Origin: Escherichia coli
GTDB taxonomy: Bacteria > Pseudomonadota > Gammaproteobacteria > Enterobacterales > Enterobacteriaceae
Direction: 5' to 3' (one strand)
Assembly (NCBI RefSeq): GCF_016026235.1
Contig: NZ_CP065614.1
Length of the DNA: 64,000 bases
Shown here piece after piece: positions 20,601 to 23,600 of the stretch (positions within the stretch are counted from its first letter, which is position 1; every line of letters begins with the position of its first letter). Made by a program: the position numbers.

Positions 20601-23600
20601 GCCTCTGGGGGGAGGGCTTACGAAGTTAGCTCATCAATATTACCATCGCACATAACATGTAATGGTGTTGGTATTAATAAAATAGAAACAAGCTATCTCG
20701 TTCATGCTGGAACACTTCCAAGCAGTGAAGGGCTTCGCAATGCTATCCCTCCAGAAAGTCGTCAAGTATCATTTGCCATCATATCTCCTGATGTTTAAGC
20801 CAATATTATATTGGCTGCCAGACTGTAAAAAAACGTTCTTCAGAACAGCTCTATAAACTATTAAACCAAAGCTAAAAGGATGGGGACCAATAGAATCTCA
20901 GCCCATCCTTTTTATATCATTATGAACCGCCCCGGAAATCCTGGAGACTAAACTCCCTGAGAAAGAGGTAAACAGGATGACTAAAAATACACGTTTTTCC
21001 CCTGAAGTCCGTCAACGGGCAGTTCGTATGGTTCTGGAAAGTCAGGGCGAATATGACTCACAATGGGCAGCGATTTGTTCCATTGCCCCAAAGATTGGCT
21101 GTATACTGGAGACTCTGCGTGTCTGGGTACGCCAGCATGAGCGGGATACCGGGGGCGGTGAGGTGGGCTCACCACCGCTGAACGTCAGCGTCTGAAAGAG
21201 CCGGAACGTGAAAATCGTGAACTGCGCCGCAGTAACAATATCCTTCGCCTGGCTTCCGCTTATTTTGCAAAGGCGGAGTTCGACCGCCTCTGGAAAAAAT
21301 AATGCCACTGCTGGATAAGCTGCGTGAGCAGTACGGGGTCGGACCGGTATGCAGTGAACTGCATATTGCCCCGTCAACGTATTACCACTGTCAGCAACAG
21401 CGACATCATCATGATAAACGCAGTGCCCGTGCGCAGCGCGATGACTGGCTGAAGAAAGAGATACTGCGCGTATACGATGAGAATCATCAGGTATACGCTG
21501 TGCGTAAAGTCTGGCATCAGTTGTTACGGGAAGGTATCAGAGTGGCCAGATGCACTGTGGCACGTCTCATGGCGGTTATGGGGCTTGCCGGTGTTCTCCG
21601 GGGTAAAAAGGTCCACACTACCGTCAGCCGGAAAGCCGTTGCCGCAGGCGACCGCGTAAACCGTCATCAAGGCAATGTGCCGCGTACTCCGGGTGGCCCG
21701 CAGCGGCTGGTATACGTGGTGTCAGCGGCGGACAAGGATAAACACACGTCAGCAGTTCCGTCAGCACTGCGACAGCGTTGTCCGCAAGGCTTTTACCCAG
21801 TCCAGCGTTACGGTGCCCCACGCCTGACGGATGAACTGTGTGCTCTGGTTACCACTTTAACGTAAAAACCGTGGCAACCAGTCTGCGCCGTCAGGAACTG
21901 AGCGCAAAAGCCTCCCAGAAGTTCAGCCCGATCAGTTACCGTGCACACGGCCTGCCTGTATCAGAAAATCTGCTGACGCAGGATTTTTACGCCAGTGGCC
22001 CGAACCAGAAGTGGGCGGGAGACATCACGTACTATTACAGCTCACCGACTGCGGGGAAACACGGGGCGCCGGGTTATTGAAGGTGACCTGTCCAGCTACT
22101 TCGACACAGTACATCACCGGCTGCTGATGAAAGCCGTCTGCCGCAGGATCAGTGATGCACGTTTTATGAGACTGCTGTGGAAAACGCCGTGTTGATGTTG
22201 GTCTCTTCCGGGCGGTCAGTGAAAGTATGCCACAGGGCGGTGTGATCTCGCCGTTGCTGTCGAACATCATACTGAATGAGTTCGACCAGTATCTGAATAA
22301 ACGCTACCTGAGTGGAAAAGCCAGAAAGGATCGCTGGTACTGGAATCACAGTATCCAGCGAGGCCGAAGTACTGCTGTCAAAGAAAACTGGCAATGGAAA
22401 CCTGCCGTTGCTTACTGTTGCTATGCCGATGACTGTGTGCCACGAAGGCGCGTCCTGGGGACGTGAGTCCCTGTGCAGCCATGCGGCACAAGAGATGAGG
22501 GAAGGCCCCTCGGTGTCGGCGTGCAGGCGCAGGCACCAAACCATCCACTGCTGCTGCATTTAAGAGATGTGGTGGTGAGCGAGATGGGAAAAGGTCGGAC
22601 GTGAGCCGATCAGGTATGGTTCGAAGAGACGAACGAAAGTGAACCGCTGATGATGTGTCGAAAGCATATAGATGATGTCAAAACAATGGTGGAGTCGTTC
22701 CTGTGGGATATGTTTACTGCCTGCGCGGCATCCGGCATAAAAGCGGCGTGAAGTCGATTCAGGCTCTTGTGGGGAACGTGGACCTGTCACCCCGATGTGA
22801 AGGGAGAAGCGCAAGTGGAAGCCCCATGAGCGCCAGAGTACCAATGCGGGGTACAGGGACGGAGCACCAAGCGATTGCGCAGTAAACATGCTTGACAACT
22901 TAATTGGGGCCCCCTCTTCCTTTTATGGTGTAATTGTTTGATTGAATACTTCCGGGGATTTCAGTATGAAATGAAGTATATTTAATATACTTTACAAAAA
23001 GTTTGTATTAGTGGAATAAGGACAATAGTTTATCCAAACTGCCAAGCCCCTTTATTATAAGTAAGATCTGGTACTAAATAAGCGTTCTAAACCGCCCCGA
23101 GTAGGCGGCCTGACGGCTGCGGCTTGTCATGGCCTGTGATTACCGTTATAAAAACAGACAATATCATTGTCTTTCAGGTAGTTATATGGCCCGTTCAGCT
23201 AAACCACGCAAACGAAAACCTGCACCTCAAAGAAGCAAACTCCTCCGCTATGTCGTAAAACTTCACGAAGATGATTTTTTTGACGAAGAAGAAGCTGAGG
23301 TTCTGCGCTTTGATAATTTTGACGATGCCGTTGAGTGTTGCGCAGACCTGAATATTCCGTTCTTTGTGGATGCCGGAAACAAAAAACTGGTCTTCTGGTT
23401 TGTACGTGTTGATGACGAAGGGTATCCGGAAATTGCCCGCTGCACGGAGCGGGAATTTGCGACAATTCCTGCCGGTATCAGCGCCGACGGCATGTATTGC
23501 CCTGAATGCGGTACGGTTCACTGGCCGGATGGCGTTATTCCGCCTTTCTGATGCTTCCCCGTTTTGCCGATATTTTTCAGCAGGGAAACCGATGGCTTAA

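Follow-up and report, generated by a model that had tools for sequence, protein, structure and literature searches.

Truncated pieces of two different group II introns in a stack of mobile-element remnants downstream of virA on the Shigella/EIEC invasion plasmid

The invasion plasmid of Shigella and EIEC (pINV) carries, beyond the 3' end of virA, a chain of mobile elements, every piece of which is truncated, at positions 20923–22918 of the window, by which we mean the whole 64,000-nt stretch of Escherichia coli DNA analysed here (contig NZ_CP065614.1). Five mobile elements are represented in this block: IS629, IS3, a group II intron resembling E.c.I4, a group II intron resembling P.l.I2, and ISEc20 (Table 1). 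The virA gene has its own stem-loop and T-run, located before the IS629 end. A sequence-only reading had described the region as an IS graveyard containing the remnant of a group II intron reverse transcriptase (RT), and all of the elements it described are present, at or near where it placed them. That reading is supported: the region does contain structured intron RNA, and the RT segment traces to group II introns and to no other class of retroelement. Two different group II introns have left pieces in the block, and the inner piece begins inside the outer one. In RefSeq, an identical EIEC plasmid annotated by PGAP carries IS3-family and “reverse transcriptase/maturase” pseudogenes at the same places.

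Table 1. Features of the block and its 3' flank (window coordinates)
Feature	Position	Strand	Description
IS629 5' part	20923..21666	+	left inverted repeat, frameshifted orfA, pseudoknot, orfB N-terminal part to “...DRVNR”
Internal IS3 orfB fragment	21665..22033	+	starts near codon 14 (“IKAMCRV...”), stops 1 nt after “...WAGDITY”
RT fragment of outer intron (class A, E.c.I4-like)	22034..22434	+	401 nt; corresponds to E.c.I4 nt 1100-1512
Target bases of inner intron	22423..22434	+	within the Y-A-D-D codons plus 1 nt
IBS2 candidate AUGCC	22423-22427	+	sequence complementarity
IBS1 GAUGACU	22428-22434	+	7/7 pairing with EBS1 loop; covariation in the family
Inner intron (class D, P.l.I2-like)	22435..22866	+	first 432 nt, domain I region; starts GUGUGCCACGAA, ends ...CGGAGCA
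EBS1 loop AGUCGUU, inner intron	22693..22699	+	pairs with 5' flank GAUGACU
EBS2 candidate region GGCAUCCGGCAU	22727..22738	+	complementarity; conservation in the family alignment
ISEc20 (IS110 family) 3' tip	22885..22918	+	~34 nt; 94-97% over 30-34 nt
AT-rich spacer	22919..23092	.	found in pINV plasmids alone

The block opens, as had been read without database searches, with the 5' part of IS629 fused to a fragment of IS3 orfB. The IS629 piece is 95.0% and 94.4% identical to IS629 copies in the window at 15178-14438 and 25653-24907, respectively. It contains the IS3-family frameshift pseudoknot (Rfam RF01497, ALIL; 21257-21373, 120.8 bits) and Pfam matches to HTH_Tnp_1 and HTH_21, and PGAP labels it “IS3 family transposase, frameshifted, missing C-terminus”. 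The left end, the frameshifted orfA and the pseudoknot are present, and ~560 nt of the 3' side, comprising orfB past “DRVNR”, is missing together with the right end; it is therefore a truncated copy. The joint to IS3 has a microhomology of 2–3 nt (TCA). The IS3 fragment is 90.9% identical over 367 nt to the “IS3-like element IS3 family transposase” of thousands of E. coli genomes, and it is internal only, with neither IS3 end kept. Pairwise alignment with the IS3 of the F plasmid puts its downstream breakpoint exactly at ...GAC ATC ACG TAC T/ (22033; the slash marks a junction here and below), with divergence thereafter.

Beyond this breakpoint lies the first intron piece, an RT fragment whose motifs include PQGGVISPLLSN and YADD, the latter encoded by TAT GCC GAT GAC at 22422-22433. 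An ORF fragment with RT motifs had been placed at 22026-22445, which agrees closely with the limits in Table 1. Pfam RVT_1 matches the ORF at 22227-22463 (E=5.5e-07, 29.9 bits), and deletions of 11 nt and 1 nt disrupt the frame. Nucleotide identity is 83% to E.c.I4 of E. coli IAI39, a class A intron (PMC3552965), 84.7% to the copy at locus L002 and 90.2% to the copy on an E. coli pVir plasmid (L003). The ltrA genes matched at 83–90% carry RVT_1 and GIIM, followed downstream by domain V (RF00029, 65.2 and 58.2 bits). Of the outer intron, nt 1-1099 and everything past nt ~1512 are gone, and ribozyme domains I–III, V and VI are absent.

The point at which IS3 stops is informative. In the IS629 of IAI39, the junctions of E.c.I4 read TAC G/GTGTGCC...CTAC/TC AGC, and the 3' exon at L002 reads /TA AGG ACC CAC GAA GGC TGG. 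The 5' exon end in the window, TAC T/, corresponds to D-I-T-Y plus 1 nt in IS3, the same register as F-T-Y plus 1 nt in the IS629 of IAI39 and as the L002 3' exon. Since the IS3 fragment stops at the register in which E.c.I4 inserts into IS3-family transposases, we infer that IS3 served as 5' exon to an outer intron that lacks its own 5' part; no microhomology marks the junction between the two. IS629, IS911, ISEc16 and ISEc31 have been published as hosts of E.c.I4 (PMC3522654). Relative to E.c.I4 and S.f.I1, the class A introns of E. coli and Shigella, the window copy is alike in its 83% identity over nt 1100-1512 and in homing to a T-Y codon plus 1 nt, but it is divergent, nearer to the pVir-type copy (90%), located in IS3 proper, truncated on both sides and frameshifted.

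One base past the YADD codons stands GUGUG (22435-22439), the conserved GUGYG 5' end of a second intron. The sequence that follows had been suspected of holding intron RNA, and indeed Rfam RF01999 (group-II-D1D4-2) matches 22497-22615 over the full length of the model, at 116.9 bits (E=2e-24; gathering score 36); there is no credible ORF in 22435-22866. The implicit assumption that this RNA and the RT belong to one intron does not hold: the RNA is that of an unrelated intron, 92.4% identical over nt 1-450 to a ~1.9-kb intron of Citrobacter braakii (L069), and its 12-nt start, GUGUGCCACGAA, is common to 92 genome loci. Judged by its sequence, the inner intron is class D and P.l.I2-like. Relatives from Photorhabdus, Citrobacter, Paraburkholderia and Acidithiobacillus, with which the P.l.I2-type comparison was made in place of the P.l.I2 (Photorhabdus luminescens) sequence itself, are 85–92% identical over the first 450 nt and have the same 5' end, EBS1 and YADD-plus-1 target. 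Unlike these full introns, the window keeps 432 of ~1880 nt, with internal deletions of 16 nt and 2 nt, and it lacks domain IV with the ORF as well as domains V and VI; homology of full-length relatives to the piece ends at intron nt ~450.

Searches for the inner intron's remainder in the window were negative. The L069 intron ORF encodes 469 amino acids with RVT_1 and GIIM and no further domain (En-less); tblastn with this intron-encoded protein (IEP) detected no inner-intron IEP in the window, the outer RT fragment being the sole match, and when the complete L069 intron and the IEP were used as BLAST and tblastn queries, no further inner-intron parts turned up elsewhere in the window. Domain V, which could not be seen by eye, likewise had no match at E<=1 to Rfam RF00029 and related models in 20500-27300. 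The only domain V nearby is a separate remnant at 27322-27402 on the minus strand (42.1 bits); it is short and resembles other introns in the domain-V core alone. At the 3' edge of the block, the ISEc20 tip matches, in many E. coli genomes and at L102, the bases that directly follow the stop codon of the transposase; the match is short, with E values of 4e-4 to 5e-3. Apart from this tip, 22867-23095 matches pINV only. An IncF-type plasmid backbone restarts at ~23092: with 22867-23190 as the query, plasmids other than pINV begin to match at query position ~226 and not before.

The retained domain I region includes an exon-binding site (EBS), whose pairing with the intron-binding site (IBS) of the 5' exon was examined. 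The EBS1 loop of the inner intron pairs at 7/7 positions with the bases immediately 5' of the intron, which fall within the active-site codons of the RT plus 1 nt (Table 1). Homologous loops and exon ends vary together: UUUCGUU with GAYGAAA, UGUCGUU with GACGAUA, and CGUUGUU with GACAAYG. Using a sliding 7-mer with matched controls, 7/7 pairing of EBS1 with a relative's own exon was found in 22 of 35 non-redundant relatives, compared with 7.4 (maximum 14) in 2000 permutations. From one sublineage to another the loop is displaced by +/-1, for which reason extraction of EBS1 at a fixed offset gave a weak signal. The EBS2 candidate region contains two tandem copies of GGCAU, either of which fits the exon sequence AUGCC.

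The location of the inner intron is not peculiar to pINV. In a genome scan, an R-Y-[AMV]-D-D plus 1 nt site precedes 25 of 88 evaluable relatives, which come from many phyla, and all eight of the closest relatives (85–92% identity) are at such a site. The ORFs flanking these YADD-site relatives are RVT_1 reverse transcriptases. Four intact twintrons are present among them (L031, L078 of Photorhabdus bodei, L092 and L074), with inner introns of 1869–1883 nt, after which the outer RT frame resumes precisely; in the window, the 5' junction is precise, and a deletion has taken the 3' junction. There are exceptions to the site rule: several relatives (L036, L038 and L078) leave the exon base at −1 unpaired. 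It is well supported that the pINV remnant is one instance of a widespread habit, in which a class D sublineage with an AGUCGUU EBS1 regularly homes into the R-Y-A-D-D coding sequence of the RTs of other group II introns. Such introns would parasitise other introns at their catalytic codons, which only splicing would restore. Sister sublineages with the same 5' end lie after H-A-D-E codons in IS66-type transposases and after G-N-C-Y/W-D-N codons in IS3-family transposases, and their EBS1 loops change together with the target, as if the lineage had been retargeted more than once, each time to codons that are among the best conserved in other mobile elements.

Three other accounts of the two intron pieces were weighed against nesting. 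They could be parts of one internally rearranged group II intron, as their adjacency on the same strand and the GUGUGCC with which both introns start might suggest. However, the RT is 83–90% identical to class A, E.c.I4-type sequences and the RNA 85–92% identical to class D, P.l.I2-type sequences, with no overlap between the two sets of hits, and the 5' region of E.c.I4 (GTGTGCCCGGAGTTCAGG...) is unlike the RNA in the window. The boundary is also the exact natural 5' end of the second intron. In a single intron, domain I would not follow the RT as it does here; an inner intron nested in the outer RT explains this order. Neither piece matches the intron family of the other, and a single-intron identity, which we consider extremely improbable, is rejected. 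Descent of the RT-like segment from a retroelement other than an intron (a retron, an Abi/UG defence RT or a diversity-generating retroelement) is more improbable still, to the point of being negligible. The short RVT_1 match does not by itself discriminate among these classes, but the DNA identity of 83–90% extends over 407 nt to ltrA genes with GIIM and a downstream domain V scoring 65.2 and 58.2 bits, and this origin too is rejected. Lastly, the join between YADD and GUGUG could be a product of chance illegitimate recombination or deletion; indeed, the joints between IS629 and IS3 and between the inner intron and ISEc20 are plain deletions. A random event would have had to break the sequence at the first base of the intron, beside a flank that pairs fully with EBS1, in a codon register shared with over a quarter of evaluable relatives and found as a precise two-sided insertion in four of them, and we regard it as very unlikely, if slightly less so than the other two.

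Retrohoming of one intron into another is the account that we favour for this junction. The outer intron would have retrohomed into IS3, and the inner intron would then have reverse-spliced, guided by EBS/IBS pairing, into the RT active-site codons of the outer intron, giving a twintron. A deletion associated with ISEc20 would subsequently have taken the inner intron's 3' three quarters, along with whatever else remained of the outer intron and of IS3. A twintron origin is suggested by one junction together with the behaviour of relatives, the inner 3' junction and both outer ends being missing; the succession given here, which the sequence itself does not reveal, is a proposal. The outer intron may have lost nt 1-1099 through 5' truncation, with cDNA synthesis left unfinished as it inserted, or through later deletion. 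In the latter case, the outer intron would have entered IS3 at full length, and its first 1099 nt would have been deleted afterward, with the left end falling at the exon-intron boundary by chance. Deletions are common in the block, the fragment has two of its own, and 5'-truncated insertion of class A (En-less bacterial) introns finds no support in this analysis. On the other hand, a random left break would coincide with a splice junction in, by our estimate, about 1 in several hundred cases, and the nucleotide at which the kept exon stops is precisely that of the homing register in IS629 and L002. We consider later deletion a substantial possibility, though not the leading one.

In 20923-22918 every ORF is broken, domains V and VI are missing, and a single IS end is left. 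No remaining part is able to splice, reverse-transcribe or transpose, and the block is very probably made up of mobile elements that inserted one after another, now inert and trimmed by later deletions. It is at least 99% identical across 116 pINV records and is fixed in practically every pINV plasmid from Shigella and EIEC. Such conservation could point to a co-opted remnant, whether as a transcribed RNA or as a spacer affecting expression in the virA/icsA region or plasmid stability. The flanking pINV DNA, however, is conserved equally, because the plasmid family is young, and the frameshifts, internal deletions and lack of a catalytic domain in the remnant, together with the stem-loop and T-run of virA itself, argue against a function. 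Promoter- and terminator-like matches in the block are no more frequent than expected from shuffled sequences. We therefore consider co-option highly improbable.

Both intron pieces have been catalogued before. The sequences named E.c.I4-tr4 (class A, 405 bp, 84% to E.c.I4) and S.s.F1 (class D, 432 bp, 90% to P.l.I2) by Leclercq and Cordaux (2012; PLoS One 7:e52268; PMC3522654) are the same as the window pieces, and their published coordinates convert to 22034-22438 and 22435-22866, respectively. The catalogue lists the two on virulence plasmids of S. flexneri 301, S. boydii CDC3083, S. sonnei Ss046 and S. dysenteriae, abutting on pCP301, pSS_046 and others (Tables S2/S3), and enters “D” for S.s.F1 and “A” for E.c.I4-tr4 in a column of Table S2 that we take to be intron class. 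It treats the pieces as separate fragments, mentions, in the parts consulted, neither the 5' end inside YADD nor the IS3 exon, and notes that P.l.I2 truncates (interrupts) P.l.I1 in Photorhabdus. In the literature, S.s.F2 is the probable second part of S.s.F1; in the window it would be expected at ~9438-10873 if the order were colinear with pSS_046, and no match was found there. With the RT pseudogene already in RefSeq as well, what is new is mild, namely the YADD-homing habit of the lineage. We found no description of this habit in the searchable literature, although the Zimmerly database and Dai & Zimmerly 2002/2003 may already cover it, and it is doubtful that it has never been formally described.

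Several known systems provide points of comparison. The nested introns of Methanosarcina and the TeI3/TeI4 twintron of Thermosynechococcus differ from the pINV case, which is a dead, non-functional remnant; in T. elongatus the insertion falls after the first ATG of the IEP ORF and before the second, whereas the pINV site is the YADD codons of the RT. E.c.I3, a class D intron with fragments also on pINV, lies in an IS transposase gene (that of IS679, IS66 family) and may belong to the sister sublineage that the scan found after H-A-D-E codons; the target gene differs from that of the inner intron, and so does EBS1 (UUUCGUU against AGUCGUU).

For the plasmid itself, the block is of little consequence: it is dead sequence that separates virA from the IncF backbone. 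The stretch 22435-22866, now blank, should be annotated as a group II intron fragment. As a record of layered parasitism, the block is clean: one intron lies in an IS, the other lies in that first intron, and both intron junctions are at canonical homing sites. If the YADD habit is undescribed, it would be a natural case of introns aiming at the catalytic codons of rival retroelements, and the covarying EBS1/target pairs would be ready for a study of target-site evolution in En-less introns.

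Downstream of virA on this Shigella/EIEC invasion plasmid (pINV), the sequence-only reading placed a graveyard of insertion sequences holding the reverse transcriptase (RT) remnant of a group II intron. That interpretation is supported except in one respect: the remnants come from two introns, the second probably inserted into the first, and the RNA downstream of the RT remnant belongs to the second. RnaG, a known feature, is present and confirms the identity of the locus (see table).

Features of the block and its surroundings (window coordinates)
Feature	Position	Strand	Detail
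icsA	15759-19067	minus	
RnaG (icsA antisense sRNA)	19086-19205		full-length Rfam match, 158.5 bits
virA	19560-20798		
IS629 5' part	20923-21666		95% identity to the window's two other IS629 copies (self-BLAST)
IS3-family frameshift pseudoknot (RF01497)	21257-21373		Rfam; inside the IS629 5' part
IS3 orfB fragment	21665-22033		90.9% identity to canonical IS3, all 367 nt
Outer intron, RT fragment	22034 to about 22434		DNA 83% identical to E.c.I4 nt 1100-1512
YADD codons (TAT GCC GAT GAC)	22422-22433		
Inner intron piece	22435-22866		
group-II-D1D4-2 (RF01999)	22497-22615		full-length match, 116.9 bits (gathering score 36)
Inner intron loop AGUCGUU	22693-22699		7/7 pairing with flank GAUGACU
ISEc20 (IS110-family) extreme 3' tip	22885-22918		~34-nt match
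AT-rich stretch, ~170 nt	22919-23092		pINV plasmids only
IncF backbone	resumes ~23092		
Group II domain V/VI remnant (RF00029)	27322-27402	minus	42.1 bits (gathering score 40)

As that reading had proposed, an IS629 5' part is fused to an IS3 orfB fragment. The joint, which has 2–3 nt of microhomology and lies ~50 nt ahead of the E.c.I4 site of IS629, is a plain deletion. The orfA of the truncated IS629 is frameshifted, with 72 aa versus 108 aa in the intact copy (20977-21195 vs 25267-25593); this is decay additional to the truncation. The ORF fragment said to carry RT motifs, including YADD, is borne out by a Pfam RVT_1 match on the ORF at 22227-22463 and by the YADD codons themselves. Among other intron copies in E. 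coli, this fragment shares 90.2% identity with L003 and 84.7% with L002. On an identical plasmid, RefSeq likewise annotates IS3-family and RT/maturase pseudogenes, leaving the downstream stretch blank.

E.c.I4 is a class A intron (PMC3552965). In the IS629 of E. coli IAI39, it is inserted after T-Y codons plus one base (...TTT ACT TAC G/GTGTGCC...CTCTAC/TC AGC ACA TGG, with slashes marking the boundaries), and the 3' exon of L002, which starts TA AGG ACC CAC GAA GGC TGG, has the same register. The window's IS3 fragment follows the F-plasmid IS3 exactly as far as ...GAC ATC ACG TAC T (22033) and diverges beyond. Because this end (...ACG TAC T) is homologous in position to the E.c.I4 site in IS629, we read the IS3 fragment as the putative 5' exon of the outer intron.

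Intron RNA domains had been suspected in the non-coding stretch to ~22900, where domain V could not be identified by eye. A covariance search bears out the suspicion with RF01999 and, at E<=1, finds no domain V anywhere nearby. A scan of a genome collection for the 5' motif GTGTGCCACGAA...AGAGATGAGGG returned 92 loci, the closest being a Citrobacter braakii intron (92.4% identity across the first 450 nt), followed by Photorhabdus, Paraburkholderia, and Acidithiobacillus copies (85–90%). The window's piece corresponds to nt 1–450 of an ~1.9-kb intron, minus 16-nt and 2-nt deletions, and homology to these relatives stops at 22866. Another E. coli plasmid, NZ_OZ546942.1, carries a second fragment (L004, 3501-3923) with 86% identity to window 22582-22799, and a piece of an ltrA pseudogene is annotated after it; L004 may be a separate relic of the same class D lineage, or one that preserves more of the intron. 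Two intron families also co-occur, as on pINV, in an IS-rich patch of the E. coli HB37 chromosome (NZ_CP053080.1, ~67.9–72.3 kb; H45, H186), where roughly 4 kb separates an E.c.I4-like ltrA from a class D-like domain I on the same strand.

The inner intron begins with its natural GUGUG start, one base 3' of the YADD codons. R-Y-[A/M/V]-D-D plus 1 nt precedes the intron in 25 of the 88 evaluable relatives, including all the closest, and the peptides encoded just before the intron in these YADD-site relatives belong to RVT_1 reverse transcriptases and show the classic group II motifs. At four loci (L031, L078, L092, and L074), the outer RT frame resumes precisely after an inner intron of 1869–1883 nt with the 3' end ...GACTCGAC. 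Rfam places the domains of L031 in the order outer domain I, inner domain I (D1D4-2 match), inner domain V, outer domain V; L078 has an inner domain I match and then two domain V matches. EBS1, the intron loop that pairs with IBS1 of the exon, varies with the exon end: UUUCGUU for GAYGAAA, UGUCGUU for GACGAUA, CGUUGUU for GACAAYG, and UUGUGGU for GCCACAA. Pairing with the member's own exon is 7/7 in 22 of 35 non-redundant members, as against a mean of 7.4 and a maximum of 14 in 2000 exon permutations. Together, the natural 5' end, the shared YADD site, and the loop–exon pairing indicate that the junction is probably a reverse-splicing (retrohoming) product at the regular target of the lineage.

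Other origins fit less well. A single RT-encoding intron is ruled out, since E.c.I4-type ltrA genes are the sole matches of the RT part, and the RNA part instead matches, at 70–75% identity, a separate family found in rhizobia, Serratia, Salmonella, and other E. coli. Random recombination between the introns is contradicted by the site sharing and the EBS1 pairing. The outer intron lacks its first 1099 nt, and the intact exon boundary fits truncation during cDNA synthesis, the step we propose, better than a random later deletion; given that boundary, we consider such a deletion the less probable cause, albeit one of real weight.

Sister sublineages with the same 12-nt 5' end occupy other sites. 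Some follow L-H-A-D-E codons (HxDE loci L010, L017, L018, L039, L044, L052, L067, and L075), in apparently IS66-type transposases, and others a G-N-C-Y/W-D-N site, an IS3-family transposase motif (GNC[YW]DN loci L015, L026, L041, L045, L046, L051, L057, L062, L081, and L083); in both groups, the hosts are assigned from the motif alone. Their EBS1 loops differ accordingly (UUUCGUU, CGUUGUU). A Serratia, Photorhabdus, and Xenorhabdus sublineage (L005, L012, L013, L037, L038, L054, L058, L070, and L093) lies immediately after ...TTCCGGC(G/T)TAG, in apparently non-coding DNA.

The ISEc20 tip that follows the truncated inner intron represents a scrap of a fifth mobile element. The AT-rich stretch beyond it has no match in other plasmids, E. 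coli genomes, or Rfam. Flanked by an IS1 copy on one side and an AT-rich ORF on the other, the isolated domain V/VI remnant resembles E.c.I4-type and class D introns in its domain V core and nowhere else.

The intron-remnant block is already known. Leclercq and Cordaux 2012 (PMC3522654) list both pieces in their supplementary tables: E.c.I4-tr4 (405 bp, marked 'A', 84% identical) and S.s.F1 (432 bp, marked 'D', 90% identical to P.l.I2), with coordinates on pCP301/pSS_046 that map to window 22034-22438 and 22435-22866, respectively. We take the 'A' and 'D' entries of Table S2 to denote intron class. The same tables list a Photorhabdus P.l.I1 truncated by P.l.I2. Twintrons (introns within introns) are established, as are introns that evolve toward insertion at sites conserved in other mobile elements (PMC4424553, PMC2882425). 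YADD-codon homing is not described in the literature searched; it is doubtful that such homing by a class D sublineage, with HADE- and GNCYDN-targeting sisters, has hitherto gone undescribed.

The block appears inert and functionless, judging from its sequence: it has no domain V or VI, intact RT, or transposase, and a single IS end, and each of the intron pieces has deletions that break the frame or the structure. Matches resembling promoters or terminators show no enrichment in the block. Across the region 20800-23200, identity is 100% to EIEC plasmids and 99.8–99.9% to the S. sonnei and S. boydii pINV, and 116 plasmid records hold at least 80% of this region; this conservation simply mirrors the young pINV family.
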